A stretch of 57,321 nucleotides of DNA, from IMG/VR virus record IMGVR_UViG_3300044723_001057, positions 1 through 57,321 of that record; one strand, 5' to 3'. Shown here piece after piece: positions 6,364 through 37,701 of this stretch. This stretch comes from a virus (Duplodnaviria; Caudoviricetes). Both the position numbers and the translations under genes were made by a program. A model generated the notes under the pieces. It was not told where the DNA came from, searched no databases, and was given only the letters and a program-made list of their open reading frames with translations. The stretch's first letter is position 1, and each line of letters opens with the position of its first letter.

Positions 6364-6573
6364 TATACGGTCTAATTTATCTTCTACACGGTGCAAGGCT
6401 TCCATAACCCTATCTATATCTTCTTTTAGTTCATTACGTGTTGCATATTCTTCTCTTGTTCTATTAAGAAGAATCTCAAGACGCTTTACTTCTTTGGTAG
6501 TATTATTAGCCCACCAACCAAAAGCACTAGCAATTACCATTAAAAGAATATCTATAAGGCTATTCATTTCCAT
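6343..6573 (-). CDS. Small membrane-anchored coiled-coil protein
   Basis: 76 aa; N-terminal hydrophobic helix then coiled coil. Confidence 0.65.
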   Translation of the reverse strand: MEMNSLIDILLMVIASAFGWWANNTTKEVKRLEILLNRTREEYATRNELKEDIDRVMEALHRVEDKLDRILSDHRK

Positions 6574-7055: not shown

Positions 7056-7067
7056 ACTTATATTCTC

Positions 7068-20585: not shown

Positions 20586-20640
20586 AGAATTTCTCCGGTT
20601 GTTAATTAGTTAGTTATTATTCTATTTTTATATTATACAC

Positions 20641-20671
20641 AAAAAAAGAGGAATACAAAATAGTATCCCTC
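20641..20671 (-). terminator. Rho-independent terminator after major capsid gene (possibly bidirectional)
   Basis: GAGGGATAC-TATTTT-GTATTCCTC then T7 on the minus strand; T-run also follows on the plus strand. Confidence 0.75.
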
Positions 20672-20703
20672 TTCTTTTTTTAAGTTTTTATTGACTGTGC
20701 TAA

Positions 20704-24328: not shown

Positions 24329-24520
24329 TTACTCCTCTTCATCTTCGTATATCATTTTGTTTACTATGTCTTTAATTTCTGCCCTAGCATATTCCAATCC
24401 CGAAATACGCCCAACAGAGTTCATATACGAAGCATAGTCCGAAGCGGCTCCAGATGCAAGCGAATTTTTTAATAAGTCTATTTCTTTTTGTAAATGCCTA
24501 TCTATTTCTTCCCAAAGCAT
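24329..24520 (-). CDS. Hypothetical protein
   Basis: 63 aa; GAASDYASY...GRISGL; coupled to portal stop. Confidence 0.7.
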   Translation of the reverse strand: MLWEEIDRHLQKEIDLLKNSLASGAASDYASYMNSVGRISGLEYARAEIKDIVNKMIYEDEEE

Positions 24521-27018
24521 TATTTACTCTTCTTAGCATCAGACAAAAGCTTAGTAATCATGTCTGCCGCTTTAAGCGTTTCGGCGTTTTCTTTATTTTT
24601 GTCTTGCTTGATGAGGTCTGCAAGGACCTCAACAGCCTTGATTGCCGTTTTTGTATTTCTATCTTTCTCTTTTTCATCCGCTTTCAGAGTATTCTCTGCT
24701 CCCACTTTATAAGCATCCAGTGCAAGCTTTTGTTCTTTCAAATCAAGGTCACGTTGTTTAAGCGCACCCTCAACAGATTCTTTAGCCAATTGAGCCTGAA
24801 CCTTTTGCTTTTCTATTTCAAGACGTTGTGCTTCCACTTGAACCATAGCTTGTTCAGGAGATGGTCCTTGCTGCATAGCAGCTTGGTTAGCTTGCATGAC
24901 TTGTTGGGCTGCAGCTACCATTACCTGTTCTATAACAAGAGGGTTCTGTGCATTAGGGTCACCCGGAGGTGCTTCTGCCATCATTTGACGTGTTAGACCA
25001 TTGACTTGCTCCTCATATTTCATTACTACGTGTTCTTGGATATTCGCCTGTAGAACAGGGGCAATACGTTGCATAATAGGATTGCCACCATTTGCAGGGT
25101 CTTGTAAAAACATTTGTTTAATTTGAATATGAGCATCGTGGTTTTGACCAGCAAATGCTTTAATAGGCAGACCCTTAGTTGCAGCTTCTATGTCTGTAAC
25201 TGGGTCAAGAGGTTGTGCCTGTGGCTTATCAGGAAGAATCTTATCCAAGTTAGGAATGTTAGCCGCATTCAATAGAGTACGGTTTAATTCTTCCATGTTG
25301 AACATTCCCGGAGGTGCAGTTTGTGCCAACTGCATTGCCATCTGCGTCATCATAAGACGATGTGCAGATGACGGAATGTTCGGGTCACTTACAGGAATTA
25401 CATCCACACGTCCATCAAAGTCCTGACGCATGATAGTTTCTGACACACCGGGGACATCGTAGGGGTACTCGCTTGGTAAGCTTTCGTAGTTAATACGTGC
25501 CAGAATCTTAAACTCATCGCGTTGCGACTTGTGTAGACGTTTGTGGATTGCACTAAAGAACTTACTAGAAGCTTCAAGCAGTGCCATAGTTGTTCCAACT
25601 GGGCCATAGTTAGAACCCTCAGAGATAACCTGTTCTGTGGTGTCTGCAAACTTCTGACCTGCTGCTGCAGTAAACTGCATCATTTGGAATAGTGTAGCTG
25701 ATGGTTCTTTGTATGGCAAAGGAACAATGGACTTAGAAATATCCATACCTGTTGCTTCTACTTCCTTAAACTCACCCGGTGCAATTGGGTCATTATCACC
25801 TACTACACGTACACCCTTTGCCTTGAAACCACCCGGCAAGTTAGCAAACTGACCTGCGTCAATAAGGCTACGCATTGCTGCAGTGGCAGACATAGTAAGG
25901 TTACCAAGGAAGTGAATAAGACCAAGACCATAGAACCCGAAGCCCGGTACAAAACGGTAATGGGTAAAGAACATTTTCTTTTCTTTGGTTGGGTCATCTT
26001 CTTTCCAGTTACGGCGAATAGACAATACCTTACGTGTACTTTCCTCAATTGTTACAATATAAGGACAAGCAGTTTCATAATCTTCTATTTCAAGATAACA
26101 GTGCTGTTCTAGTAGTACGTACTGTGGGTCAAGGTCTGAAGAAGGAGACAACCCAAGGACTGTATCCATCTTTTCTGTAAGAGCCGACTGCTCTGGATGG
26201 TAAGCATCTGGAAGGTCTATCTCTTCATACATACCTGCGGCAATTTGCTTTGCCAGTTCCATAGGACTACGGTACAGTACATGAGTATATCTGTCTGCAC
26301 GTCTTAGGTCAGTAGCATAATAAGACACATAGAATTGGTCAATAGGTACAAACTCACTTACTGGACGCTGTGACGCTGAATCATAATAAATCTTTTTAAA
26401 CGAAGAGCCAATCAACGGAAGGTGAAACAGCATACGTTCAAACTCATCAAAGTATTCTGGCATCTGCTCAGTAAGTTGATAGTTCATAAAGTTTTGTACA
26501 CGGTTACCTTGCCGTTGACGCTCCACGGTTGCATCGCCAAGAACTTGGGTTTTGACTGGACCACTGGAAGGAAAGAGTTCTTGGGATGCACGTGACTGGA
26601 ATTTAACTGCTGATTCAATAAGCAGTGGGTGTACAGCAGTTGCCGCACCCTCAAATGGTTCTGTTGTTTCTTCCAGTTTTAGGCCAAGCAAATCAAACCC
26701 ACGCTCAAACATGGATTCCCATTCTGAACGTGAGGACTTGTCTGCCTCAAACTTTTCGTAAACATCATTACCTATTTCTATAAGTAGTTCTTCGTCAAGT
26801 TGTTCTACTAGGTTGTCATAGAAGCCGCCTTCGTCATACGAAACTTCTACTTCCATACCAAACATTTCCCCTTCAGGAGCGAATGATACTTCTATCTCTC
26901 CTGTCTCAGGGTCAACTTCAAAGCCTACGTTTTCATCTGATTCTTGATTTATATTTAATTGAATAACATTATCCATACCTTCAGGCATAATGTCATTGGG
27001 ATTTTTTTCTATAGCCAT
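24520..27018 (-). CDS. Portal protein
   Basis: 832 aa after terL; HPLLIESAVKFQ, GSSFKKIYYD, PGFGFYGLGLIH; long helical C-terminus. Confidence 0.85.
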   Translation of the reverse strand: MAIEKNPNDIMPEGMDNVIQLNINQESDENVGFEVDPETGEIEVSFAPEGEMFGMEVEVSYDEGGFYDNLVEQLDEELLIEIGNDVYEKFEADKSSRSEWESMFERGFDLLGLKLEETTEPFEGAATAVHPLLIESAVKFQSRASQELFPSSGPVKTQVLGDATVERQRQGNRVQNFMNYQLTEQMPEYFDEFERMLFHLPLIGSSFKKIYYDSASQRPVSEFVPIDQFYVSYYATDLRRADRYTHVLYRSPMELAKQIAAGMYEEIDLPDAYHPEQSALTEKMDTVLGLSPSSDLDPQYVLLEQHCYLEIEDYETACPYIVTIEESTRKVLSIRRNWKEDDPTKEKKMFFTHYRFVPGFGFYGLGLIHFLGNLTMSATAAMRSLIDAGQFANLPGGFKAKGVRVVGDNDPIAPGEFKEVEATGMDISKSIVPLPYKEPSATLFQMMQFTAAAGQKFADTTEQVISEGSNYGPVGTTMALLEASSKFFSAIHKRLHKSQRDEFKILARINYESLPSEYPYDVPGVSETIMRQDFDGRVDVIPVSDPNIPSSAHRLMMTQMAMQLAQTAPPGMFNMEELNRTLLNAANIPNLDKILPDKPQAQPLDPVTDIEAATKGLPIKAFAGQNHDAHIQIKQMFLQDPANGGNPIMQRIAPVLQANIQEHVVMKYEEQVNGLTRQMMAEAPPGDPNAQNPLVIEQVMVAAAQQVMQANQAAMQQGPSPEQAMVQVEAQRLEIEKQKVQAQLAKESVEGALKQRDLDLKEQKLALDAYKVGAENTLKADEKEKDRNTKTAIKAVEVLADLIKQDKNKENAETLKAADMITKLLSDAKKSK

Positions 27019-27051: not shown

Positions 27052-27080
27052 ATTATAACTTTAAGTTCTCCAATACGCAA
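27052..27080 (-). promoter_or_regulatory. Sigma70-like promoter for portal operon
   Basis: TTGCGT-17 nt-TATAAT on the minus strand, upstream of the portal ATG. Confidence 0.6.
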
Positions 27081-28608
27081 CCCTCTTTCTCATTCTTGGT
27101 TCATCTTCCCAGCTAGGGTCTTCTGGGTGAATAAGGTTCCAGCTATCCTTCATGTAATGAATAGCCATAGTCATACAGTCCACTTGGTCATCATGCGAAC
27201 CGTGTGGGAAAGACATACACTCTGAAAACAGGTCATCTGACCATACACGGTCTGATGGTAACCACACACGCCCTGCCTCCATCATTGGGGTGGCTGCATA
27301 TACACGTGACACTTTGTCACGGTCAGGAAGATAGTCTAAGACAGGAAGACCTGCCCTACGCATATCCTGCAGTAAAGACTGACCAGAGGCCTTTTTCTCT
27401 ATTATACAAACATCTGGTCTAAACTCTGCATAAAGTTCCTGTGCCTTACGTCTTAGTTCTGGATATTCAAATCTACCTCTAGTATTACCTAATAATATAA
27501 TATTACTTTGTGATTGTTCTACTCCATATTCATTATCTTCAAATGTATAGAATATACCCCACGTTTGTATTACACTATAGTCAGCAGTCCTAGACGTACT
27601 AAAGGCTGTATCATATGTCTGTAATATAAAGTCACATGGGGGTGGTTCGTCATAATCCCAAGTTTGTATCCACTTCTTCTTAATAATACCACCGTCATCA
27701 GGACTTGGGTCTTGCATATACAGAGCATTCCAATATCTACTACCATTGGATGCCCTAATCTCCTGCTCGTCAATCTTTAACAACTCATCAGGCTTCCACT
27801 CAGGAAAGTAAGACGTACCTACTGGTAATCCTAATAACTCTGCTGCTTCTTCATTCAGCCATGCAGGAATACTGATTACATCCCATGGGTACATATTTTC
27901 TTCTACTGCTGCTTCCTGTTTAAGAAGCCAACCACAAAGGTCATCATAGTGGTATCTAGTATTAATAATAATAATTGCACCATTAGGCATGATACGAGTT
28001 CTAAGACCTGCAGGATACCATTCTTTAATATATCTTCTACCTGCTTCTGAGATGGCATCTTCTTCAGACATAACGTCATCCAATAAAGCTACGTGTGCGC
28101 CGCGACCTGCAACCTGACTTCTCACACCTGCTGCATAGTAAGAACCATTCTTGTTTGTCTTCCACTTACCTGCTGCCTTAACATCACTCCTTAGACTAAT
28201 ACCTTTGAATATCTTCTGGAACCGTTCTGTATTCACAATGTCCCTGACCGTCCGACCAAAGTCACTGGCAAGCTGGTCACTGTGTGACACTGACATAATC
28301 TCATGGTTAGAAAAGTTACCCATATACCAAGCAGGAAACAACTTACTACAAATAACTGACTTGGATGAACGAGGTGGCAAGAAGACCATAAGCCTCTTTA
28401 CATCCCCATCCACTACCCCCTGTAGCTTTGCACAGAGGAGTTCTATATGCCTACCCATCTTAAAATCAGACACAAGAGTAGGGGCAAAGACCTTAACAAA
28501 GGTTTCAAAGTCTGTCTTTGCCCTTATATTTGTATATTCTTTTAACTTATCTTTTAATGTTATGTATGGAGCATTTGGATTATTATCTTCTAAACTAGAA
28601 TCCAACAT
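27061..28608 (-). CDS. terL: Terminase large subunit
   Basis: Walker A-like PPRSSKS, Walker B ALLDD, nuclease YDTAF, IEKKASG and HDDQVD. Confidence 0.92.
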   Translation of the reverse strand: MLDSSLEDNNPNAPYITLKDKLKEYTNIRAKTDFETFVKVFAPTLVSDFKMGRHIELLCAKLQGVVDGDVKRLMVFLPPRSSKSVICSKLFPAWYMGNFSNHEIMSVSHSDQLASDFGRTVRDIVNTERFQKIFKGISLRSDVKAAGKWKTNKNGSYYAAGVRSQVAGRGAHVALLDDVMSEEDAISEAGRRYIKEWYPAGLRTRIMPNGAIIIINTRYHYDDLCGWLLKQEAAVEENMYPWDVISIPAWLNEEAAELLGLPVGTSYFPEWKPDELLKIDEQEIRASNGSRYWNALYMQDPSPDDGGIIKKKWIQTWDYDEPPPCDFILQTYDTAFSTSRTADYSVIQTWGIFYTFEDNEYGVEQSQSNIILLGNTRGRFEYPELRRKAQELYAEFRPDVCIIEKKASGQSLLQDMRRAGLPVLDYLPDRDKVSRVYAATPMMEAGRVWLPSDRVWSDDLFSECMSFPHGSHDDQVDCMTMAIHYMKDSWNLIHPEDPSWEDEPRMRKRVAYWRT

Positions 28609-28805
28609 TAAATACCTACACCTTTTTTATTACATTTAACCTTTAAACCTATAGTAGGAGGTGTTTGGTCTGCCGACACAAAGTCTTCCATCATTTCTGA
28701 TGCCCTCGCCTTACACTCTAACTCAGTTTTATATGGCCCTTTACTATCATGTAATTCTACACAATCATTATTTAATAAGCAAACTAAAATTACCACTTCA
28801 AACAT
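28608..28805 (-). CDS. Small Cys-containing protein with hydrophobic N-terminus
   Basis: 65 aa; stop overlaps terL ATG; GPYKTELEC...VKC. Confidence 0.6.
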   Translation of the reverse strand: MFEVVILVCLLNNDCVELHDSKGPYKTELECKARASEMMEDFVSADQTPPTIGLKVKCNKKGVGI

Positions 28806-28826
28806 TTTATTTGCTTTCTATAAAAG

Positions 28827-29398
28827 TGTTGCATAATTGCAACAGTCATTATGACAATCGTATTATAGCATATTGCGTCTTTGTAAGAAATATGTTATTT
28901 TCTATTTAGTCCCAAAGGGGTAAATATATACCCCCCCCATATACCCGACACACCTCCACGTAAAGATAACACAAGACAACACAAGCTAGCCATAACTATG
29001 AATCCCCCCGGACTAATACTAATATTTTTATAATATGAATGACCCTTGTTTTTTTGTAAATATATGTCAGGGGTATATTATATATATAAATGTCAAGCAG
29101 TTTTTTTGGTAGGGGTTATCTAAAGATACTTCCCAATCTGTCAAGATTTTGACCAAAGAATCCTTTTCCCAACACAAAGTGTTGCATAAATGTCACAGTC
29201 AAGTAAAATCTTTATAGATTTTATCAAGTTAAGTGTTGCATAAATGTCACACTTCATGTGTATGCATAGCCCCTGTCAATTCCTTGACACCCATACCCGC
29301 CCCTATGTCATTTAATTGACACTCTTAGTGTCAAAACTTTGACAGTTCTATGAAGATTCTTTAGAATCTTTCCAAGAGGATGTGTATTATGTCACACA
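28827..29398. promoter_or_regulatory. Four TGT-N12-ACA palindromic sites
   Basis: TGTTGCATAATTGCAACA 28827-28844; TGTTGCATAAATGTCACA 29180-29197 and 29234-29251; TGTGTATTATGTCACACA 29381-29398. Confidence 0.55.
28873..28901 (+). promoter_or_regulatory. Candidate rightward sigma70 promoter
   Basis: TTGCGT-17 nt-TATTTT with TGn extension. Confidence 0.35.
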
Positions 29399-29530
29399 TC
29401 ACCACATCACCCAGACCTACACAATCCAATCATGTACACGTAAAGTATTGATATATCTTATTATTATCTTATGATAATAAGATATATCAAGATACCAAGT
29501 TGGCAATCAGTCATCGTCAAATTTTTGACA
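29139..29530. promoter_or_regulatory. Five TGTCA-N6-TGACA palindromic sites (a sixth at 30680-30695)
   Basis: 29139-29154, 29274-29289, 29306-29321, 29329-29344, 29515-29530; at most one mismatch to consensus. Confidence 0.6.
29448..29490. repeat. Hairpin element A
   Basis: TTGATATATCTTATTAT-tatcttatg-ATAATAAGATATATCAA; perfect 17-bp arms. Confidence 0.8.
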
Positions 29531-29622
29531 GTTTGATGAGGCTTTCACAAGCACTCACAGGCCGCATGATGAGGCATATGACGAGGCTAAATTCCAATTG
29601 GAATTACCAGATTTGGTAGGGT

Positions 29623-29664
29623 TTAATATATATCTCTCTCTCTTATGAGAGAGATATATGTTAA
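29623..29664. repeat. Hairpin element B
   Basis: TTAATATATATCTCTCTC-tcttat-GAGAGAGATATATGTTAA. Confidence 0.9.
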
Positions 29665-29685
29665 GATAACGGTTTTGGAGGCCGA

Positions 29686-29811
29686 ATGACAACACAAACC
29701 TAGCTTCATGCTAGACATACAGAGCCAGCTTTAGCTGGTGACTGCGTACTGCCTAAGAGTGCTTGGCATGGCATCAAGTTGCACTATAAACTGCCAATTA
29801 CGAGGATTTAA
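29686..29811 (+). pseudogene. Amber-interrupted small ORF between hairpins B and C
   Basis: GGAGG RBS, ATG 29686, TAG at codon 6, then open frame to TAA 29809-29811 inside the TTAA of hairpin C. Confidence 0.4.
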
Positions 29812-29849
29812 TATATATCTCTCTCTCTTATGAGAGAGATATATTTTAA
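29808..29849. repeat. Hairpin element C
   Basis: TTAATATATATCTCTCTC-tcttat-GAGAGAGATATATTTTAA. Confidence 0.9.
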
Positions 29850-29863
29850 GATGGGGATTTGTA

Positions 29864-30085
29864 ATGATACCAATGAAAGACTTTCCAGAATACTTTGAAG
29901 GCTATAAAGCCGCCAAAGAATTTGTAAAACAAGAGTGTCAACTTTTTGACACTTCTGATGCTTATGAAAAAGCTATGGAAGGTTCAGATAATGAACCTCA
30001 TAGGTATGAAGAAATACATGACCCTTGGCAACAAGGGTGGCGTGGTTTCTTTCAGGACTTTGCTCTTGGCAGAGTTAAACTTTAG
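29864..30085 (+). CDS. Early hypothetical protein
   Basis: 73 aa between hairpins C and D; GGGG RBS. Confidence 0.7.
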   Translation: MIPMKDFPEYFEGYKAAKEFVKQECQLFDTSDAYEKAMEGSDNEPHRYEEIHDPWQQGWRGFFQDFALGRVKL

Positions 30086-30088
30086 GTT

Positions 30089-30130
30089 TTAATATACTTA
30101 TCTCTCTCTTATGAGAGATAAGTTTATTAA
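30089..30130. repeat. Hairpin element D
   Basis: TTAATATACTTATCTCTC-tcttat-GAGAGATAAGTTTATTAA. Confidence 0.9.
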
Positions 30131-30155
30131 GTAAACGGTTTAGGAGTCCGGAAAA

Positions 30156-30323
30156 ATGAACATTAAAATCCAAGCCACTTCATGGGAAGTGAATCAAGAA
30201 ACTTTGTTTGAAGTTTCTACTACAGATGGGGAAGTCTTAGCCATTGTAGATGGCTCTGAAGTCTCTGATATTGTCTCATTTGGTTTTGTCCATGAAGGAC
30301 AAATCTTAGCATTGGAGAATTAA
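30156..30323 (+). CDS. Early hypothetical protein
   Basis: Read manually: MNIKIQATSWEV...ILALEN, 55 aa; AGGAG RBS. Confidence 0.65.
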   Translation: MNIKIQATSWEVNQETLFEVSTTDGEVLAIVDGSEVSDIVSFGFVHEGQILALEN

Positions 30324-30326
30324 GAC

Positions 30327-30530
30327 ATGGAAAACTTCTACTCTGTTGAAGTTTATGATGCGAAAAGCAATCAGTGGGGTATATATTCCAGAAACAAATA
30401 TCTTGAATCTGCTATGAAGATAGCAGATTATGCACATAATGATGTGGGAACCGCCTTTGGCGGTGGTAAGAAAGTGGTTCGCATTTCACTGAATGGTGAA
30501 ATAATTTATGATACTTTGTCGGAGGTTTAA
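30327..30530 (+). CDS. Early hypothetical protein
   Basis: 67 aa; GGAG RBS. Confidence 0.7.
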   Translation: MENFYSVEVYDAKSNQWGIYSRNKYLESAMKIADYAHNDVGTAFGGGKKVVRISLNGEIIYDTLSEV

Positions 30531-30534
30531 GACA

Positions 30535-30693
30535 ATGTTTGATTATCTTATGGGTTTATATTTCATAGTCACTGCAATGATAGTGGGGACTATGGCATAC
30601 ATGGATGGGCTAGGGTTCTTTGTCCTAGCCTCAGTGGTAGTAGCAGTCTCTGGACTGGTACTGATTATTGACAGCCAGATGTCAAAAAATTGA
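30535..30693 (+). CDS. Small two-TM membrane protein
   Basis: 52 aa from ATG 30535; GGAGG RBS; two hydrophobic stretches. Confidence 0.65.
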   Translation: MFDYLMGLYFIVTAMIVGTMAYMDGLGFFVLASVVVAVSGLVLIIDSQMSKN

Positions 30694-30701
30694 CACAGGT
30701 T

Positions 30702-30744
30702 TTAATATACATATCTCTCTCTTTATGAGAGATATGTTTATTAA
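30702..30744. repeat. Hairpin element E
   Basis: TTAATATACATATCTCTC-tctttat-GAGAGATATGTTTATTAA; compensatory change relative to D. Confidence 0.9.
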
Positions 30745-30810
30745 GTATAGCAGATTCCGGCTTGGCAATGGTGCTGGTCGGATTAACAGCCAACAAGAGG
30801 AGATTCTTAC

Positions 30811-31065
30811 ATGGCTTTCAAAAACTCTTTTCACCGTTCATCTGCAACGCTTGCGGCTCTGGTCTTATCCAGAGCGAGGCATGAAGATGCTTTGAAGCAA
30901 GACGAACATGACTTATTCAGTCATTTGTTTGTCAAGTCGGTTGACCAGATGGCAACTGACATTGTTGGTGAAAAGGTTTGGAACATTCTTGTTAAGAAAG
31001 AATGTTTTGAGCCTCATTCGGTAAGGCTTACTATTCGGCATCTAAATGCCGGATTTGAGGACTAG
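30811..31065 (+). CDS. Early hypothetical protein
   Basis: 84 aa; GAGGAG RBS. Confidence 0.7.
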   Translation: MAFKNSFHRSSATLAALVLSRARHEDALKQDEHDLFSHLFVKSVDQMATDIVGEKVWNILVKKECFEPHSVRLTIRHLNAGFED

Positions 31066-31073
31066 GCCGGACA

Positions 31074-31117
31074 TTAAATAAATACTACCTACTACTTATG
31101 TAGGTAGTATTTTTTAA
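31074..31117. repeat. Hairpin element F
   Basis: TTAAATAAATACTACCTAC-tacttat-GTAGGTAGTATTTTTTAA. Confidence 0.9.
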
Positions 31118-31131
31118 GAAGGAATTTTGAA

Positions 31132-31368
31132 ATGCTGAAATTGACAAAAACAAAATCATCACAATGGATGGGCAACGGCTTCGGCAATGATAATGCCGAA
31201 TGGGTTGTTGTCGGTCATGAAAATGTAGCAGTCAAAAAACTTGGCTTCTACTGGTATGCTGTAGACTTGAATGAATACACCATGTTCAACAATAGACAAG
31301 TCAATAAAAAGATAGCACGTTCTGAAACTAAGAAAGGCTTGCTTGAAATTTTGGCTGATAAGATTTAA
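31132..31368 (+). CDS. Early hypothetical protein
   Basis: 78 aa; AAGGA RBS; stop lies within hairpin G. Confidence 0.7.
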   Translation: MLKLTKTKSSQWMGNGFGNDNAEWVVVGHENVAVKKLGFYWYAVDLNEYTMFNNRQVNKKIARSETKKGLLEILADKI

Positions 31369-31408
31369 ATAAATACTCTCTACTACTTATGTAGAGAGTA
31401 TTTTTTAA
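31365..31408. repeat. Hairpin element G
   Basis: TTAAATAAATACTCTCTAC-tacttat-GTAGAGAGTATTTTTTAA; compensatory AC/GT to CT/AG change relative to F. Confidence 0.9.
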
Positions 31409-31423
31409 GATGGAGATTTTGGG

Positions 31424-31600
31424 ATGACCTATGACGAATATGTAAAAACTTATGAAGCTATGCTTACTGAATACCTCAACAACTATAAGCCAACAAACAT
31501 ACCATCTGAAGTTAAACAGATGGTAGCAGCGGCAGATAAGCTTGTTGACTTTGAAGAAACCTACCCAGCTTATGCTGAAAAGTATGAAGCACAATTCTAG
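31424..31600 (+). CDS. Early hypothetical protein
   Basis: Read manually: MTYDEYVKTYEAML...EKYEAQF, 58 aa; GGAG RBS; bounded by hairpins G and H. Confidence 0.7.
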   Translation: MTYDEYVKTYEAMLTEYLNNYKPTNIPSEVKQMVAAADKLVDFEETYPAYAEKYEAQF

Positions 31601-31603
31601 TAA

Positions 31604-31648
31604 TTAAATAAATAGTGTATATACTTTAGTGTATACACTATTTTTTAA
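31604..31648. repeat. Hairpin element H
   Basis: TTAAATAAATAGTGTATA-tactttagtg-TATACACTATTTTTTAA. Confidence 0.85.
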
Positions 31649-31663
31649 GATGGAGATTTGAGA

Positions 31664-31816
31664 ATGGTTGAGACAAAATATGACAATGATGTATACTATA
31701 GGCTATGTGATGAAGCCTATGAAGAATTGAGGCTTTACTATCAGGACGACTATGCTTTAGCATCTGCCGCCATAGACTTGGCAATGAAACGGTATGACGA
31801 AATGGAGAATGTATAA
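31664..31816 (+). CDS. Small acidic early protein
   Basis: Read manually: MVETKYDNDVYYRLC...EMENV, 50 aa; GGAG RBS; stop overlaps the next ATG. Confidence 0.65.
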   Translation: MVETKYDNDVYYRLCDEAYEELRLYYQDDYALASAAIDLAMKRYDEMENV

Positions 31817-32439
31817 TGTTTGCGAAGCACCAAGTAAAAATTATGAAATGGGCAATGAAAAATGCTGATAACATTTTTCTTTTAATCTTGATGGTGTCGT
31901 TGTCTATTCGGCAACCATGGGCAGTAATTGGTAAACAATTACAAGATGTCCAAGCTAATGGTTCTAATTCCAAATACCTATTTGGAAGTAAGAAAGATTT
32001 GTATTTCCATGTAATGGAAAACAAACAAGCTATCTTTCAACTATTGAAAGACACCAAAGCTGGTAAAGTTTCACAAGCTGAATGCTTGTATAACCTTACA
32101 AACATCCCCGGCCTTGGCCTTGCCAAAGCTGGCTTTGTAATGCAATTGGCAATCGGCATGGCTGGCTGTATAGATAGTCACAATGTGACTATGTTTGGTG
32201 TCAATCCTAATGCTTTGAAGATGGGTAAAGTCAAGGCTGAGAAAGCCTTGGAGAAAGCCAAGATGTATCTTGACCTATGCGAAAAGCTAGGTGGTACAGA
32301 ATTTCTATGGGATAACTGGTGCAACTTTGTTGCAGTCCGGCATCCTAAACATTTCCAAGATGGCAATGATGTCTCTGCGAGACATTGTTCTTACCTTGGA
32401 ATTAAACCTCAGTCTTTTGTAGAAAGACTGTTTAGCTAG
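31816..32439 (+). CDS. HhH-GPD superfamily DNA glycosylase-like protein
   Basis: HhH motif LTNIPGLGLAKAGF followed by CIDSHN (VDTHV-equivalent catalytic Asp). Confidence 0.6.
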   Translation: MFAKHQVKIMKWAMKNADNIFLLILMVSLSIRQPWAVIGKQLQDVQANGSNSKYLFGSKKDLYFHVMENKQAIFQLLKDTKAGKVSQAECLYNLTNIPGLGLAKAGFVMQLAIGMAGCIDSHNVTMFGVNPNALKMGKVKAEKALEKAKMYLDLCEKLGGTEFLWDNWCNFVAVRHPKHFQDGNDVSARHCSYLGIKPQSFVERLFS

Positions 32440-32450
32440 GAGATAGTGTT

Positions 32451-32723
32451 ATGAAATGGCGTAACATGATGCGTGATTCTGAAATACAATGGCTTACCTT
32501 GACAGGTAAGACAAGGCATGGTAAGAACCGCATAAATCAACATGGCATCCATTGGCTAGTATTAGCCGATGGAATGTTTGATGGTAGAGAGGCATGGCTT
32601 TTACGTTCTATAAATAGAACAGATAAAGGTGGCTTTGATGGAAGATGGGTACATAAAAATGGTGACAATAACTTTATTGTCAAAGGCTTAGATAAAGAAA
32701 CAGGAGCGATGGTATGTCTGTAA
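32451..32723 (+). CDS. Early hypothetical protein
   Basis: 90 aa; AGGAG RBS; GKTRHGKNRINQHG. Confidence 0.7.
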   Translation: MKWRNMMRDSEIQWLTLTGKTRHGKNRINQHGIHWLVLADGMFDGREAWLLRSINRTDKGGFDGRWVHKNGDNNFIVKGLDKETGAMVCL

Positions 32724-33046
32724 GATATGATGTAGATAGAATGACTTTTGATATTGTCAAAGATGGATTGCTGGAATCATTGCAAGAAAGCAAAGATGAA
32801 ATCTTTAACAACCAATATCCAGAGGATATGTTGCATGAAATTGTGGACAGTAATGTCCCAATTTATCACAGTGATTTGGCAGACATTCTGTCTGGCGATA
32901 CAAGCTTTGCATATGTAGATGATTCTGGCTTAATGCCAGAACATCCAGATGTGTGGCAAATCATTAGCATTTCAATATATGAAAGGCTAAGTGATATTGC
33001 ATACCTATGGTTTGAAGAAAACAGATTGGAGTTTGACCATGACTAG
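32714..33046 (+). CDS. ocr: Ocr-like DNA-mimic anti-restriction protein (T7 gp0.3 family)
   Basis: LHEIVDSNVPIYHSD...DDSGLMPEHPDV...IYERL aligns by eye with T7 Ocr IHMAADNAVPHYYAD...EDSGLMPDTKDV...IYEQL; acidic; 110 aa. Confidence 0.8.
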   Translation: MSVRYDVDRMTFDIVKDGLLESLQESKDEIFNNQYPEDMLHEIVDSNVPIYHSDLADILSGDTSFAYVDDSGLMPEHPDVWQIISISIYERLSDIAYLWFEENRLEFDHD

Positions 33047-33200
33047 GCAAGAATTTTGGGAGTGGATGGCAACCTGTCCTGCAAAAGAGGATTCAGACTT
33101 TTCTACTATTAAAAAGTCTGGATGGTTTGTTGCAGATGATGGCGGCACTGACGCTAGAATATTCTTTTACTTTGAAGAGGAGCATGACGAAGATGCATAG
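33039..33200 (+). CDS. Early hypothetical protein
   Basis: 53 aa from ATG 33039 (MTRQEFWEW); GGAG RBS. Confidence 0.6.
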   Translation: MTRQEFWEWMATCPAKEDSDFSTIKKSGWFVADDGGTDARIFFYFEEEHDEDA

Positions 33201-33423
33201 AAACTGTATCCACTTACTTGGTTCTGACCAAGTATTCTCTGGAGTTATCTGGCGCGAAGAGGATAACTCTGCCGAAGATACCGCTTGGAAAATCCAATCA
33301 TTATTGGATGCCGCTTACCAATTATGTGAGGGGCAGACAGGCGGTGACCATAGAGCCGCCGAAGTTATGGTTGATAACTATCTCAACCAATGGCAGAGAA
33401 CGGGCATGGTTGACTTGCCCTAA
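33193..33423 (+). CDS. Early hypothetical protein
   Basis: 76 aa from ATG 33193; GAGGAG RBS; stop abuts hairpin I. Confidence 0.6.
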   Translation: MHRNCIHLLGSDQVFSGVIWREEDNSAEDTAWKIQSLLDAAYQLCEGQTGGDHRAAEVMVDNYLNQWQRTGMVDLP

Positions 33424-33466
33424 TTAAATATATATAACCCTCTCTTATGAGGGTTATATATTTTAA
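33424..33466. repeat. Hairpin element I
   Basis: TTAAATATATATAACCCTC-tcttat-GAGGGTTATATATTTTAA. Confidence 0.9.
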
Positions 33467-33489
33467 GACATCCAAATGGAGATTGGAAA

Positions 33490-33714
33490 ATGAACGAATT
33501 GTTTTTGGTAAATGTCAACTATGATGTGACTGGTAACTACCCATCTTGGGTATGCCAGAAAGCTACACATAGTTTATCAGAGGCTTCAGCTTGGGCTGAA
33601 GAAATACGTCTGGATAATTGGGAAGTCAAAGTCCAGTCAATCTTAATCAACGACAAGGGTTATGTAGAGGATACACCTTGGCGGTGGGAACCAAAGCAAA
33701 AGGAGAATGCGTAA
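33490..33714 (+). CDS. Early hypothetical protein
   Basis: 74 aa; GGAG RBS. Confidence 0.7.
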   Translation: MNELFLVNVNYDVTGNYPSWVCQKATHSLSEASAWAEEIRLDNWEVKVQSILINDKGYVEDTPWRWEPKQKENA

Positions 33715-33935
33715 TGTCTGGTGCAGATTATGTATACAATAGAAAAGATGGTGGTCAAACATACTGCTATGGCAGTATAGAGTGGGACAGTAATTTCTCT
33801 GTTGTCTGCGACAATGAATACAATGATGGTATTTGGTGTGGCGATGAGGGGTTTACCCCTAAGACATGGCTTCAAGTATGTGAATACTTGGAGAAGTATT
33901 ACGACAGTAAAATAGAACAATTGGAGACTTGCTAA
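33714..33935 (+). CDS. Early hypothetical protein
   Basis: 73 aa from ATG 33714; AAGGAG RBS; TAATG coupling. Confidence 0.7.
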   Translation: MSGADYVYNRKDGGQTYCYGSIEWDSNFSVVCDNEYNDGIWCGDEGFTPKTWLQVCEYLEKYYDSKIEQLETC

Positions 33936-34186
33936 TGTCTGAATGGCGCAATATAAAAATCCCATTGTCATGGGATTCACAAAACCAATTCTACCTATCT
34001 ATATTTCAGACTGATATGGACACACTTGAATGTGTCCCTGTCAGGAGATATAAGGATGGGGAGACAATCTTGATTGGGGAACCAATCAGGTTTAGTAACT
34101 CTGGGGAACTGGAAGTTTTACTTTCGGATGCACACAGAGGTATCTTTGACACATGGCTAACTGAAATGGAGAAAAATTGTGGCTAA
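33935..34186 (+). CDS. Early hypothetical protein
   Basis: 83 aa from ATG 33935; GGAG RBS. Confidence 0.65.
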   Translation: MSEWRNIKIPLSWDSQNQFYLSIFQTDMDTLECVPVRRYKDGETILIGEPIRFSNSGELEVLLSDAHRGIFDTWLTEMEKNCG

Positions 34187-34301
34187 AAAGAAACTGATTT
34201 GGAAAGACAAAAGCTGGAAGCTTGAACGTAAAATTAAACGCCAAGTCAAGTATGACTTGGTGTGGAAAAATTTACTAACCCCAGAACAGAAAGGAGCATA
34301 G
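34179..34301 (+). CDS. Small basic protein
   Basis: Read manually: GTG start, MAKKKLIWKDKSWK..., 40 aa; GGAG RBS. Confidence 0.45.
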   Translation: MAKKKLIWKDKSWKLERKIKRQVKYDLVWKNLLTPEQKGA

Positions 34302-34303
34302 AT

Positions 34304-34483
34304 ATGCAAGTCAAGATTGTTGTAAAGAATAAGAACGTGGTGCGTAATCCAATTGGAAATAAGAACCTACGGTTTGTGACTAAAGATGGTCGCATTTCAA
34401 ACAATCAGGGTTACCTTTGTGTGTCTCGCTGTCTAAAGACAGGTCAGTTTACTGAGAGAAACACATTTGAACTTGACATCTAA
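34304..34483 (+). CDS. Small basic protein
   Basis: 59 aa from ATG 34304; AAGGAG RBS. Confidence 0.65.
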   Translation: MQVKIVVKNKNVVRNPIGNKNLRFVTKDGRISNNQGYLCVSRCLKTGQFTERNTFELDI

Positions 34484-34489
34484 CCACTT

Positions 34490-34532
34490 TTATAATACTA
34501 CCTACTATAGAAATGTAGTAGGTAGTATATAA
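34490..34532. repeat. Hairpin element J (divergent)
   Basis: ATACTACCTACTA-tagaaatg-TAGTAGGTAGTAT core; shares its stem with F; TTGACA at 34473. Confidence 0.75.
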
Positions 34533-34555
34533 TCAACTTGAAAATAGGAACTGAG

Positions 34556-34726
34556 ATGCAAAACATCATAACATATGTAGCAGAAAAGAAAGACGTACAG
34601 GCCGTGAAGGACTGGTACTTTGGACAGTATCCATATCTTGGATATGATACTAGGGTAGCAAAAGAATATGTGAATGACGAAGGAAAGGTAGAGATTACCT
34701 TTGAACGTCTGGCATCTTGTGATTAG
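34556..34726 (+). CDS. Early hypothetical protein
   Basis: 56 aa from ATG 34556; YPYLGYDT...RLASCD. Confidence 0.65.
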   Translation: MQNIITYVAEKKDVQAVKDWYFGQYPYLGYDTRVAKEYVNDEGKVEITFERLASCD

Positions 34727-34740
34727 AAAGGAGAATAACC

Positions 34741-35025
34741 GTGGCTAAAAATCCATTTGCAAAAACAGTAGACGTAGATAATGCCTATGCAACTTACCGT
34801 GTGGAGAATCCATCAAACGGTATGTACTTTGAATGGAAAGTTTTGAAGGCATGGCAAGGCCGTGATAAGGAAGATACCAAGCCTTATTCAAGATGGTTCT
34901 GTGCAGTTAAGTCACCTATGACTTATGATAGCTGGGAGATGGGTGACGTTTATGTCTCTGAAATCAAACAGTTAGCAGACCTAATTCATGCAACACCTGA
35001 ATGGAAATCTTATGAAAAAGTATGA
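34741..35025 (+). CDS. Early hypothetical protein
   Basis: 94 aa; GTG start with AAGGAG RBS; WFCAVKSPMTYDSWEMGDVY. Confidence 0.7.
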   Translation: MAKNPFAKTVDVDNAYATYRVENPSNGMYFEWKVLKAWQGRDKEDTKPYSRWFCAVKSPMTYDSWEMGDVYVSEIKQLADLIHATPEWKSYEKV

Positions 35026-35185
35026 GATACGAGCAATAGATGCAGTCCAAAAGACATACGTCTTAGAAGCTGAGACTGCCGAAGAAGCAATTGAAATGGT
35101 GATTGAGCAGGACGCAAGTCCTGTTCATGAAGAAATTATTCTTAGCGAAATAGAGGAAGCGAAGGAGATTAAATATGTCAACTAA
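35012..35185 (+). CDS. Small acidic hypothetical protein
   Basis: MKKYEIRA...EAETAEEAIE; start uncertain. Confidence 0.55.
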   Translation: MKKYEIRAIDAVQKTYVLEAETAEEAIEMVIEQDASPVHEEIILSEIEEAKEIKYVN

Positions 35186-35363
35186 GAAAATGATGTTACC
35201 ATGTGAAGATGTGAGTACAATGATTATAAATATGTGGGACAGTTACCATTCTCTTAAACAGAATGGTTATCTGAACTCTGCAGAAAAGGTATTGGAAATC
35301 ATACTAAAGTATGATAATAAACTTAGGAAGAATGGCTATTGGAAGGACGAAAGCAATGACTGA
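35175..35363 (+). CDS. Hypothetical protein
   Basis: 62 aa; AAGGAG RBS. Confidence 0.6.
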   Translation: MSTKKMMLPCEDVSTMIINMWDSYHSLKQNGYLNSAEKVLEIILKYDNKLRKNGYWKDESND

Positions 35364-35646
35364 CAACTATGACAGTGGCTTTGACCTTGTGTTATCAGAA
35401 GATGAACGCAAGGCTTTGATTAAACATTACAAAGAAGAATGTTTGCCTCACTATCAGTCTGATAGCGAAGAAGATTTGTGGTATAGCCTACATATAGGTG
35501 ATAGGGAGTTTGACATTAACATCTGGACTGACGACATGACTGAACAACAGGTGTGTGCAGTCTATGAATGTGATTGGATAAACGACAACTGGCAAGCTAA
35601 CTGCCGACACAGATGGACACTTACAGAGGAGATTGAAAATGTTTGA
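35356..35646 (+). CDS. Acidic hypothetical protein
   Basis: 96 aa from ATG 35356; AAGGA RBS. Confidence 0.65.
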   Translation: MTDNYDSGFDLVLSEDERKALIKHYKEECLPHYQSDSEEDLWYSLHIGDREFDINIWTDDMTEQQVCAVYECDWINDNWQANCRHRWTLTEEIENV

Positions 35647-35836
35647 CCCAAATAAAACCTACGGCATTACAGTTTGGAATATGCCTGTAGCCGTAATTGA
35701 TTACGAAGCTGACGATTATGTTCGTAATGAGGATGGCAGTATCAAGCTATTCCATATACCAAACTGTGACTACTCATACATCTGTGATGGTATAGATTTA
35801 GATGACCTATGGGAGATTGAAGATGCTGTTGCATGA
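35639..35836 (+). CDS. Acidic hypothetical protein
   Basis: 65 aa from ATG 35639; GAGGAG RBS. Confidence 0.65.
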   Translation: MFDPNKTYGITVWNMPVAVIDYEADDYVRNEDGSIKLFHIPNCDYSYICDGIDLDDLWEIEDAVA

Positions 35837-36029
35837 GTTTTACAGTGATGAAGATTGCAGTCGTGGGCTTGGTGCATACCGAAAAGCGACTGTCTTTCTT
35901 GAGCCTGACGGTAGCTATACTGTATACATGATTCAGGATGGCGAGGTCAAAGAAGAACGTAACATAACAGGACACAGTGAGGTGTATGCCGAAAACTGTG
36001 CAGAGAACTGGGTATTAGGAGTGATATAA
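35823..36029 (+). CDS. Hypothetical protein
   Basis: 68 aa from ATG 35823; ends HSEVYAENCAENWVLGVI. Confidence 0.65.
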   Translation: MLLHEFYSDEDCSRGLGAYRKATVFLEPDGSYTVYMIQDGEVKEERNITGHSEVYAENCAENWVLGVI

Positions 36030-36280
36030 TGAGCAACACAATTAAACTTGAACTGACTAGCTTTCATACGAAGGAAAAGATTTACCTTGTAGGTAGTGAC
36101 TGGTATGTCTCAACCTTAGTGCAGGACAAAAAGGAACGTACCATTGTCCAGAATGGTATGTCTAACAATGGTGGATTTCATGTCACAGAATCATATGAAG
36201 AAATAAAAGATATGATTCTTAGACAAACAGAATATAAACCATTGACAAGAGGCAAAGGATATTATATTAACAATGCTTAG
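36029..36280 (+). CDS. Hypothetical protein
   Basis: 83 aa; NNGGFHVTESYEEI; AGGAG RBS. Confidence 0.7.
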   Translation: MSNTIKLELTSFHTKEKIYLVGSDWYVSTLVQDKKERTIVQNGMSNNGGFHVTESYEEIKDMILRQTEYKPLTRGKGYYINNA

Positions 36281-36566
36281 ACATGAAGCCTATATGAAAC
36301 AGAAAGAAAAGGAGTTGAACATGACGAAGGGGATTCCAACAGAGCAACGTAAGAAACTGCTTGATGCTCACAACAAACTGAAAAGAATTGTTAGCATGAT
36401 ACAGGAAACGTCAGACCTTTACTTGTCTGACGTAAGAGAACTTGAAAATATTCAACATATGTTGTGTAAAGAATTTAAGTTTACTGTACCACAAGATGAA
36501 GAAGGTAATCGTATGTACTATGCTGATTGGGTATTTGAGGAGGACGTAAATGACAAAGACATTTAA
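36273..36566 (+). CDS. Hypothetical protein
   Basis: 97 aa; alternative internal start after AAGGAG. Confidence 0.6.
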   Translation: MLRHEAYMKQKEKELNMTKGIPTEQRKKLLDAHNKLKRIVSMIQETSDLYLSDVRELENIQHMLCKEFKFTVPQDEEGNRMYYADWVFEEDVNDKDI

Positions 36567-36774
36567 TTACACTGACCATTCGGAGGTTCCAGATGTTGAG
36601 TTACAGCTTGTTGAAGATTGTGCTGATTGTTCTGCTGATATGCTGGATATACAGGAAATAAATGAGTTCCTGACTGAGTATCACAACCACTTCCATGACG
36701 AAGGACAACCCTCTTGGGAACAAGAGTGGGAAGACTTTGGCGAAGTGTATGATGACGAACCTGCCTACATATAG
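36550..36774 (+). CDS. Highly acidic small protein
   Basis: 74 aa; GQPSWEQEWEDFGEVYDDE; GAGGAGG RBS. Confidence 0.7.
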   Translation: MTKTFNYTDHSEVPDVELQLVEDCADCSADMLDIQEINEFLTEYHNHFHDEGQPSWEQEWEDFGEVYDDEPAYI

Positions 36775-36788
36775 AAAGGAGTTTAGGT

Positions 36789-36974
36789 ATGCAAAACTTG
36801 TGGGAAAAAGATAAGAAGCGTCTGTTCAGAGAACTATACCAGCAGTATCTGGATGAGGGCTATGATTCTAAAGAGGCTAAGAAACTAGCCTCTGAGGAAG
36901 CAGACGAAATCTATTCTGATAGTGAAGGCTTTGCCTTTAACCTAGCAAGTATGGAAGATAGAGATGACACCTGA
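36789..36974 (+). CDS. Small acidic protein
   Basis: 61 aa; YLDEGYDSKEAKKLA; AAGGAG RBS. Confidence 0.7.
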   Translation: MQNLWEKDKKRLFRELYQQYLDEGYDSKEAKKLASEEADEIYSDSEGFAFNLASMEDRDDT

Positions 36975-37185
36975 GATTGTAGAAGAATACTCAGGTACTG
37001 AGGGTAGGGAAGCTACCATATCTATTATAAGTGAGAAGCTTAGTATGTGGAGATACACATATGAAATCTTACTAGCTAAAGATGGTAAGATTGTAGGCAA
37101 ACACGTCACTGAATTTATGGACTATGCCCGACTAATTGCAAACCGTTGGATAACAAAAGGAGAACTTACAGATGGAACTAAATGA
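36964..37185 (+). CDS. Hypothetical protein
   Basis: 73 aa overlapping its neighbours. Confidence 0.6.
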   Translation: MTPEIVEEYSGTEGREATISIISEKLSMWRYTYEILLAKDGKIVGKHVTEFMDYARLIANRWITKGELTDGTK

Positions 37186-37501
37186 TTACCAAAACCTAGC
37201 TATGAAAACTGCCATCTTTCCAGAGCGTGATGGGTATGCATACACAGCCCTTGGCCTTGCAGGTGAGGCAGGTGAGATTGCAAACAAGGTTAAGAAGTTT
37301 ATCCGCGATGGGTATTCACAAGAAGAATTACCTGAGAAAATCAACGACTTACGAGATGAACTTGGTGATGTCTTGTGGTATGTCGCAGCAATGGCACAAG
37401 TGTTGGATATAACACTAGAACAGGTTGCAAGAAATAATATTCACAAGCTTGCTGAACGTCAGGTCAAGGGAACCTTGGGTGGTTCTGGTGATAAGAGATG
37501 A
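37172..37501 (+). CDS. mazG: MazG-like nucleotide pyrophosphohydrolase
   Basis: LGLAGEAGEIANKVKK...DELGDVLWY...N..KL..R...GSGDKR. Confidence 0.9.
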   Translation: MELNDYQNLAMKTAIFPERDGYAYTALGLAGEAGEIANKVKKFIRDGYSQEELPEKINDLRDELGDVLWYVAAMAQVLDITLEQVARNNIHKLAERQVKGTLGGSGDKR

Positions 37502-37686
37502 AACAGATAAAGCTTGAAATATCAGGCAAGCATCCTTATAACTTTGAAACAACTGATGATGCATCTGAATGGATACAGGACAGGGCTAGACTTGCCAGAG
37601 CCATTGGCTTTGAGACAAAGCAGACTGACCGTATGCTGTATGTCCTTGACAAAGGAGAGGTGCTTGCCTTATACTATTACCGTTAA
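37498..37686 (+). CDS. Hypothetical protein
   Basis: 62 aa; ATGA overlap with mazG. Confidence 0.6.
   Translation: MKQIKLEISGKHPYNFETTDDASEWIQDRARLARAIGFETKQTDRMLYVLDKGEVLALYYYR
37646..37675 (+). promoter_or_regulatory. Sigma70-like promoter for primase/polymerase
   Basis: TTGACA-18 nt-TATACT. Confidence 0.5.
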
Positions 37687-37701
37687 TCAGAAGGAGATGT
37701 C

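Follow-up and report, generated by a model that had tools for sequence, protein, structure and literature searches.

The viral contig IMGVR_UViG_3300044723_001057, of an uncultured estuarine phage, was analysed over its full length of 57,321 bp (hereafter the window), which is the whole viral contig and has an estimated completeness of 97%. Structural genes (tail, ejection and virion proteins) occupy the minus strand from position 1 to ∼29,200. The plus strand carries small early open reading frames (ORFs) from 29,860 onwards, followed, up to 50,400, by a T7-type primase/helicase, a family A DNA polymerase, a Cas4-like exonuclease and a ribonucleotide reductase. Ten imperfect hairpins, named A to J, stand at the head of this plus-strand region, between 29448 and 34533. 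An initial annotation, made from the letters of the sequence, had singled them out as elements conserved in structure that partition the early genes into cassettes. The elements are real and clearly non-random, and gene gain, loss and reordering in relatives and in population contigs fall largely at their edges. We give roughly even chances to the reading that they are clade-specific, sense-strand attenuator or 3′-protecting hairpins that double as recombination joints.

Scanning the whole window for hairpins of at least 11 Watson-Crick pairs, with at most one mismatch and a loop of 3–9 nucleotides (nt), returned 13 hairpins. Ten of these are A to J (14–19 pairs, loops of 3–7 nt), just where the initial annotation had placed them, while each of ten first-order Markov shuffles yielded only 0–2. 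A generic inverted-repeat finder missed most copies and a minimum-free-energy sliding-window scan was too noisy. The elements, each 42–46 nt long, are listed below with their scores from a covariance model (R1), which was built from copies B to I plus 21 copies from relatives and run on the whole window with filters off; folding energies are added for A and B.

29448..29490, plus strand: A, 19 pairs, with TTAT in the loop and without a T-run (49 bits; −19.5 kcal/mol)
29622..29665, plus strand: B, stem CTCTCTC/GAGAGAG with one U-G wobble (74.6 bits; −24.5 kcal/mol)
29807..29850, plus strand: C, a near-copy of B with tail TTAAGATGGGGATTT ahead of a 73-aa ORF (74.7 bits)
30088..30131, plus strand: D, stem CTTATCTCTC/GAGAGATAAG with one U-U mismatch and tail TTTATTAAG (68.1 bits)
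30701..30745, plus strand: E, stem CATATCTCTC/GAGAGATATG, with the longest spacer to the next ATG, 66 nt (65.9 bits)
31074..31118, plus strand: F, stem CTACCTAC/GTAGGTAG with a bulged T, then T6 (71.2 bits)
31365..31409, plus strand: G, stem CTCTCTAC/GTAGAGAG and T6, with the TAA stop of the upstream ORF in its left arm (78.9 bits)
31604..31649, plus strand: H, stem GTGTATA/TATACAC with one U-G wobble and T6 (62.5 bits)
33424..33468, plus strand: I, stem AACCCTC/GAGGGTT (64.9 bits)
34491..34533, plus strand: J, a lengthened class-F stem with TATAAT on both sides and no T-run (only 14–18 bits)

The eight training copies from the window scored 62–79 bits and A, which lies outside the training set, reached 49 bits. 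Nothing else in the 57 kb exceeded 13.4 bits, apart from the weak match to J (E-value 0.8–4.7). These scores indicate that nine of the ten copies form one family and that J is a class-F stem with other flanks. The proposal of a single family confined to the early region thus stands for A to I, but J fits it poorly.

Alignment of the copies resolved three fixed parts, namely a left end TTnAATAnA, a loop TTATG (TTTAG-TG in H) and a right end TnTTAAG, and conservation ends sharply at TTAA ... TTAAG. The stem top between these parts falls into at least 11 classes. As first described, B to I are bounded by TTAA on either side, with a G following the right-hand one, a 2–3 nt repeat of the last stem bases lies 5′ of the loop, and C, G and H share the tail TTAAGATGGRGATTT. 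The loop was also said to end in TTAT before a G, which is the case in most copies, but H has TTTA before its G and J differs. The A-rich left flank and the T-rich right flank pair to form the lower stem, in either of two registers. In almost all copies the pairing is imperfect at one point, 5–7 pairs above the base of the stem, where there is a bulged T, a T-G wobble or a T-T mismatch, and the stems reach 18–20 pairs when wobbles and one bulge or mismatch are counted (14–19 Watson-Crick).

The placement of the elements is strict, in that none lies inside an ORF. The AT-rich left flank supplies stop codons, and a GGAG-type Shine-Dalgarno sequence follows 10–12 nt after the right flank, ahead of the next ATG. 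Copies D to J start 0–8 nt past the upstream stop (G overlaps its stop codon), which agrees with the spacing of about 10 nt or less reported initially. On the other side, the elements end 14–27 nt before the next ATG, with the exception of E.

Stem sequences had been reported to change compensatorily, and this was borne out. Covariation was assessed on 28 distinct copies, drawn from the window and from four contigs of relatives, with 500 shuffles for comparison. Within a 19-pair structure, 91.2% of cells pair (70.9% in shuffles) and 111 cells are changed on both sides (32.9 in shuffles), values that none of the 500 shuffles reached. A weaker signal came from the number of stem pairs with a both-sided change, 11 of 19, which 32 of the 500 shuffles reached. 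Shifting the partner by 1–3 columns lowered pairing to 37–68%, and RNAalifold recovered 13 pairs, ten of them with compensated changes.

Folded as plus-strand RNA, the elements have energies of −17.9 to −24.5 kcal/mol, compared with averages of −2.3 to −3.6 for shuffled copies. All 46 copies found in eight contigs lie in the sense orientation, and the plus-strand RNA is more stable than the minus-strand RNA in ten of the ten window copies (sign test 0.001, for copies that are not independent). Cells that depart from Watson-Crick pairing are U-G, U-U, A-A or A-G, never A-C or C-A. Orientation, plus-strand stability and the types of wobble together fit an RNA that is read in the sense strand, although among related copies this is a weak test.

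The family is narrowly distributed. Across 80 loci around related terminases (loci in related contigs are given L-numbers), the model matched only L010, L011, L014 and L032, whose terminases are 83–90% identical to that of the window. An exact degenerate pattern retrieved 52 stretches in viral contigs and at least 119 in metagenome contigs. Among the matches listed, the model confirmed L098 (on the same contig as L011), L154, L197 and L207, as well as L010 and L014, and all of the single-match loci were due to chance. Relatives with an 81–85% identical terminase leave the hairpin-bearing 5 kb (29448-34533) almost unmatched, with one 143-nt match in L036, whereas the hairpin-free stretch at 34.7–37.5 kb does match them. 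The hairpins therefore mark the hyperplastic part of the region. More distant relatives have classical hairpins with an A-tract, a stem and T7-10 on the sense strand of the early region (e.g., L051, L064, L079, L083, L087). Repeated AT-only hairpins of their own were also observed in L018 (650-1090), L070, L073, L078, L080 and L082, ∼650–1030 nt upstream of the terminase gene; their position corresponds to that of element A, the loop reads TTTATG in several of them, and they may be an older layer of the same habit. Searches of the literature, judged from listings and abstracts, gave no account of this kind of element beyond the T4-type phages.

Gene maps of the window, L010, L014 and L098 share genes (among them those labelled a, d, e, f, g, h, m, x and c) in differing orders and beside differing hairpin classes. 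A given tail can be combined with as many as six stem classes, and behind a given upstream gene end there are differing stems and downstream genes. Some pairs travel together; gene e, for example, is accompanied by G and gene f by H on the 3′ side, and gene d by E on the 5′ side. Gene e lies behind F in the window and directly behind gene a in L014. Gene m is preceded by a hairpin in L010 and the window and lacks one in L014, and gene h is found directly behind H (L014), behind gene g (window) or behind x-c (L010, L098). Since a gene may or may not be preceded by a hairpin, the start of expression does not depend on one.

The initial annotation had proposed to test whether breakpoints in gene content fall on the elements, and they largely do. 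Besides the gene maps, the ends of blastn blocks fall at element edges (30088, 30697, 31119, 31365, 31422, 33424 and 34490). The contigs of four DNA runs gave ten joints, of which four have both ends at element edges, three have one and three have none. Among those with both ends at edges, one removes gene d along with F (30753>31124) and another removes gene f along with H (31421>31662). Overall, 11 of the 20 joint ends lie in elements, which cover 11% of the stretch. One joint that goes back, 31815>31424, fits a reordered strain and not a circle.

The stem tops can also change while the DNA between them is kept, as is the case on either side of the following cassette:

29666..29806, plus strand: ORF-less cassette of ∼143 nt from B to C, with a 5-codon mini-ORF and two or three small hairpins

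The mini-ORF is conserved and lies behind the GGAGG Shine-Dalgarno sequence in the tail of B. Over a wider stretch, blastn aligned the cassette at 85–88% identity to L098 (7975-8120) and L014 (reverse strand), yet the flanking hairpin tops differ by four compensated pairs. A conserved cassette between changed tops indicates that the tops were swapped or converted as units. The cassette itself may be a small RNA or a leader. Gene g entered by an insertion bounded by GGAGA..ATG microhomology. None of the hairpin-less junctions that were read has a TTAA footprint, on which ground a transposon-like insertion with TTAA duplication was rejected.

Two further features define the early region:

29339..29367, plus strand: strongest sigma-70-like promoter of the region, TTGACA-17-TAGAAT (11/12), from the promoter scan, ∼100 nt before element A
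32714-33046, plus strand: Ocr-like DNA mimic (anti-restriction) of 110 aa (PF08684, 39.9 bits with a cut-off of 25, E-value 6.3e-10)

The promoter at 29339 lies in a non-coding stretch that can be aligned to close relatives up to 29585, and it is likely the early promoter from which the block with the hairpins is transcribed. Its −35 region has a degenerate second copy at 29521-29590 (plus strand), followed by GATGAGGC (or GACGAGGC) three times within 60 nt. The hairpins divide 18 small ORFs into seven blocks of 1, 3, 1, 1, 1, 6 and 5 genes. Downstream of J, ∼14 ORFs are tightly packed with no hairpins between them, and a second strong promoter-like site, at 37646, precedes the primase/helicase.

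The elements had been proposed to separate early anti-host genes, and both their strictly intergenic placement and the Ocr homologue support this. The ocr-like gene lies within the six-gene block between H and I, which marks the region as a T7-like anti-restriction early region. Ocr was the only protein above its family cut-off when 17 small ORFs of the hairpin block were scanned against Pfam. The homologue occurs here in a phage without a T7-type RNA polymerase. Gene h (31816-32439, plus strand) encodes 207 aa with a helix-hairpin-helix-like stretch and is 84–96% conserved in three relatives. It was considered as a possible reader of the elements and set aside, since neither a Pfam or PHROG family nor a solved relative was found for it and its sole Atlas lead, to Ogg-HhH proteins, is weak.

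The flanks of the hairpins were not weighed in the initial annotation, and their make-up points to terminator-type hairpins. Copies B to I are A-rich on the left and T-rich on the right. The T-rich tract is good in F, G and H, where it reads T6, and in D and E (TTTATT), and it is moderate in C and I (TTTT). A comparable structure lies among the late genes:

20640-20700, minus strand: terminator-like hairpin after a 310-aa late ORF, with A7, an ∼11-pair stem and T7 (−21.2 kcal/mol), followed by TATAAT

The early hairpins share with this predicted terminator the succession of A-tract, stem and T-tract as well as a similar energy. It is this likeness, together with the A-tract/U-tract flanks, that argues for hairpins of the terminator type. 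Phages offer precedents for both halves of such a role. The work on phiKZ describes 61 intrinsic terminators with one conserved motif (PMC10914365), and that on PeSL (promoter early stem-loop) elements describes stem-loops that are terminators and recombination points (PMC2839356, PMC4122927).

We infer a module that would consist of a stop-codon flank, a stable hairpin whose lower stem is formed by the A-tract and U-tract, as in intrinsic, partly leaky terminators (attenuators) and in hairpins that protect 3′ ends, a U-rich run and, 10–25 nt later, a Shine-Dalgarno sequence and start. Host RNA polymerase would start at the 29339 promoter and transcribe through A to I, with a fraction of the polymerases stopping at each hairpin. 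Such partial stopping could grade the expression of the anti-host genes, including ocr, and could keep early transcription out of the later block, possibly with a restart at J. Element J, with TTGAAC-18-TATAAT (10/12) ending at its left edge, may be a restart promoter with a 5′ hairpin; J-type copies are found in L010 and L014. Because the modules are 45–60-nt repeats with fixed ends, recombination or gene conversion between them could occur, by which single genes or small blocks would be gained, lost, reordered and re-paired. If host RNA polymerase and ordinary recombination act on the elements in this way, no dedicated reader is needed.

Several points weigh against attenuators that double as recombination joints. 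The stems are AT-rich (17–31% G+C in 46 copies), the lower stem consumes part of the U-tract, the U-tract of B is poor (GTTAAG) and A and J have none. Efficient terminators would be odd at B and C, which precede the first long ORF, and some nine terminators in series behind one strong promoter would starve the distal genes unless they were leaky. Features that a terminator leaves unexplained are the near-invariant TTATG loop, a T that never varies at alignment column 12 and the regular imperfection of the stem. Our crude terminator scan of 29300-37700 found six sense and eight antisense candidates and so did not separate the strands. Templated correction of quasi-palindromes at replication could give compensated changes without selection on RNA. 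As for the joints, five further joint ends lie at hairpin-less gene boundaries, a hand-made junction table gives a Fisher p of only 0.08, and the joint from B to C (29621>29807) shares 38 letters on both sides and is possibly an assembly artefact.

Another possibility is that RNase III, or another structure-specific RNase, cuts one long early transcript at the hairpins, as in T7, leaving mRNAs that end in protective hairpins. The setting would suit this, with an ocr homologue, a T7-type primase/helicase, a family A polymerase, one strong promoter and hairpins between early cistrons, and processing sites at B and C would not block expression of the first gene. The single imperfection resembles the internal loops of T7 sites, which restrict RNase III to one cut there. 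The full stems also come near the ∼22-bp duplex that the enzyme holds according to PMC6212723, yet they remain under two helical turns. Folded early intergenic regions of T7 look different, with GC-rich upper stems and no T-run, and R1 had no match in the T7 early region (positions 400-8000; best 9.8 bits, E-value 4.5). Processing would moreover leave the A-tract/U-tract flanks without a role, and on balance we regard it as unlikely.

It is also improbable that the elements lack a function of their own and are palindromic repeats, selfish or neutral, whose perfection is maintained by templated quasi-palindrome correction and which gene conversion has spread through a tolerant region. Copies within one genome are often identical, and the CTACTAC class occurs four times in L014, three times in L010, twice in L098 and never in the window. 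The four compensated pair differences in tops between conserved neighbours are fitted better by conversion than by stepwise mutation, and the family is narrow, with eight contigs that carry it and closely similar terminases in the four carriers compared. Neutral repeats would not, however, be expected always to follow stops, to keep a set distance from starts, to stay outside ORFs and to lie in the sense orientation, nor would their loop and flanks be conserved across so many stem classes. Relatives have hairpins at matching positions, and terminator-like flanks are hard to obtain without selection.

The initial annotation had inferred a structure-read system whose reader would be a host factor or an unannotated phage protein. 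In a reading of this kind, an unrecognised factor would act on the folded nucleic acid, and the conserved TTATG loop, the fixed TTnAATA/TnTTAAG ends and the regular unpaired T would serve it. The hairpins would then be exchange sites of an integron-like cassette system in a lytic phage that lacks a known integrase, or else hairpin-form promoters or processing signals by which every anti-host gene becomes a separate expression unit. We consider this improbable as well. The scans gave no candidate reader, as neither an RNA polymerase nor a recombinase appeared among the 40 proteins scanned. RNA polymerase families had no match in 20 large ORFs and the DxDGD motif is absent in all frames; integrase, HUH transposase and other recombinase families were likewise missing from the 40 proteins, with ∼12 small ORFs beyond 34.7 kb outside the scan. 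The conserved loop and the regular imperfection could still indicate a specific RNA- or DNA-binding factor.

The two specific forms of that proposal are both very unlikely. In the first, each hairpin would contain a promoter and each cassette would be expressed independently, the promoter being either a PeSL-type composite (TTnAAT as −35, loop TATGAN as −10) or an N4-like hairpin promoter with an unrecognised polymerase. The invariant TTnAAT is followed 16–17 nt later by TTATG and A/T, which is sigma-70 geometry and would explain the conserved loop, and according to PMC2839356 the stem-loop of a PeSL is often placed over the −35 and −10 boxes or in the interval that separates them. Element A, which is also present in L010, L011 and L014, contains TTGATA-16-TATGAT (10/12), and only A and J reach this value. 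By eye, the hexamers of B to I match at 3/6 (TTTAAT or TTAAAT) and 4/6 (TATGAG or TATGTA), and these copies fail the promoter scan because they lack a T at the last −10 position. One copy reads TTGTG and has thereby lost the A at the second −10 position, and the L032 copies read TTAGG. The −35-like hexamers that had been noted at G, I and J are in the sequence, but they are not a shared feature; external −35 boxes were rejected, since no conserved −35 lies at a fixed distance upstream across 40 copies. Promoter-like matches number 47, compared with 41.3 expected. With genes that occur without an element in front, and with stems of 13–19 pairs that are far from N4 promoter hairpins, a promoter in every copy is not supported.

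In the second, the DNA itself would fold, as a structure-specific recombination site or mobile palindrome (attC- or REP-like) for a dedicated, unrecognised enzyme. This would suit the cassette layout, in which an imperfect palindrome comes after a gene, its outer repeats fixed, its middle variable and one of its bases extrahelical or mismatched, as well as the sharp boundary of conservation, the exchange of hairpin tops as units between well conserved neighbours and the reordering of cassettes in population contigs. It is opposed by the lack of a recombinase match among the 40 proteins scanned, the lack of a TTAA footprint at the hairpin-less junctions that were read, the microhomology that bounds gene g, the uniform orientation of copies with transcription, wobbles that favour sense RNA and the finding of no circular joint in the assembled contigs of the four DNA runs.

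Two landmark genes of the structural arm were identified by the family scan:

24520-27018, minus strand: portal
27061-28608, minus strand: large terminase

The nearest isolates are distant, the terminase being 39% identical to that of Pelagibacter phage HTVC023P and the primase/helicase 47% identical to that of HTVC115P, and a nucleotide search with the early region found no match in 50,697 phage records. The DNA runs that contain the stretch are mostly estuary metagenomes, and a look-up of 29300-34700 listed no RNA run with the sequence. No tRNA genes were found in the window and no Rfam family reached its gathering score anywhere in it; in 28600-35000 there were four chance-level Rfam matches (E-value 0.1–0.5). 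The largest ORF (∼1240 aa) matches a virion structural protein family only (phrog_22602). Both ends of the contig (1-250 and 57070-57321) encode the same ∼83-aa part of one ∼1240-aa virion protein, with one residue differing, which indicates that the assembly is closed or terminally redundant.

Between the terminase gene and the early promoter lies a non-coding stretch of ∼850 nt (28610-29450) with C runs and with small palindromes over the promoter, in which the word GTGTTGCATAAATGTCACA occurs twice, along with a palindromic variant. In many relatives the contig ends 130–1100 nt upstream of the terminase gene, and the contigs of strains part from one another at 28844-29117. The stretch may contain the genome end or be an assembly break. 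Elsewhere on the plus strand, we noted a MazG-type pyrophosphohydrolase at 37172-37501 (51 bits) and, at 47484-49901, an 805-aa protein in which a methyltransferase domain is joined to an MptE-like domain.

Should the elements prove to be attenuators that double as joints, PeSL-style modular shuffling would not be peculiar to T4-type myoviruses, and the portable joint could be a promoterless module of terminator and ribosome site. Lytic phages would then have a simple means, and a general one, of trading anti-defence genes (around ocr in the present case) in which each incoming gene is kept correctly stopped and translated. With its 11 or more hairpin variants around a constant loop and constant flanks, the family is also a compact natural collection that would be useful for measuring the effect of the stem on read-through.

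Comparison with known systems sets the elements apart from each while showing where they are alike. Hairpins also occur in the early region of phage N4, whose promoter hairpins have 5–7-bp stems and 3-nt loops and need a giant virion RNA polymerase; here the stems have 14–19 pairs and the loops 3–7 nt, and neither a match to a virion polymerase nor DxDGD was found. Repetitive extragenic palindromic (REP) elements are likewise short palindromes repeated after stops inside operons, and they can protect the upstream mRNA. They go with a RAYT (REP-associated tyrosine transposase, of the HUH type) and have a conserved GTAG head, whereas no RAYT was found in the scanned ORFs and the present elements, in a phage, have a TTnAATA head, a Shine-Dalgarno tail and U-tracts.

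The attC sites of integrons are imperfect palindromes 3′ of promoterless cassettes, are conserved in structure more than in sequence, and have fixed outer repeats and an unpaired base, all of which recalls the present elements. Their boxes are ordered R″/L″-L′/R′ and read GTTRRRY/RYYYAAC, with GTTRRRY at the crossover point. Such boxes are absent here, where the right end is TnTTAAG and only B-type copies read GTTAAG. The elements are just 42–46 nt long, their strand bias fits RNA, the contigs gave no circles and the scanned proteins included no integron integrase.

The early region of T7 is alike in having hairpins between early cistrons, host-type promoters upstream and an ocr-type gene at its beginning. 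Its folded early intergenic regions, some of which are the RNase III sites although the T7 record does not annotate them, have GC-rich upper stems of 9–13 pairs, with unpaired stretches and short lower stems in four of five and a T-run in none. Three of these five regions (T7 record L258, 850-6475) carry CCUUUAUGAU just after the upper stem. The only likeness in sequence is UUAUGA, which forms the loop edge in the present family and has a different structural place in T7, and the match is probably due to chance.

The terminators of phiKZ likewise are many copies of one motif, a hairpin with a T-rich run on the sense strand after genes. According to PMC10914365 their stem is GC-rich and fixed, the copies are genome-wide and the sites were mapped by RNA 3′ ends; the present, predicted terminators vary in the stem with compensation, keep loop and flanks fixed and lie within 5 kb.

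The closest resemblance is to PeSLs. According to Arbiol et al. 2010 (PMC2839356) and Comeau et al. 2014 (PMC4122927), these are repeated intergenic modules with an upstream stop in AT-rich DNA, a stem-loop, a Shine-Dalgarno sequence and the next start. They are concentrated in a hyperplastic early region of small ORFs without known relatives, and they lie at the boundaries of indels, replacements and reorderings between close relatives. Both have a stable stem-loop (14–19 pairs here), with terminator activity predicted in the present case. Mini-circles that arise by exchange between neighbouring motifs are a further mark of PeSLs; in the assembled contigs of the present phage, the one backward joint fits a reordered strain. 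In PMC2839356 PeSLs are defined by a consensus sigma-70 promoter, unlike most of the present copies, and their stems often have G/C tracts, whereas the elements described here are AT-rich, with A/U-tract flanks and a conserved loop. Nor is the present phage a T4-type myovirus, given its T7-type primase/helicase, family A polymerase and ocr. The elements are thus most likely a variant of the PeSL kind in which hairpins of the terminator type stand without promoters.

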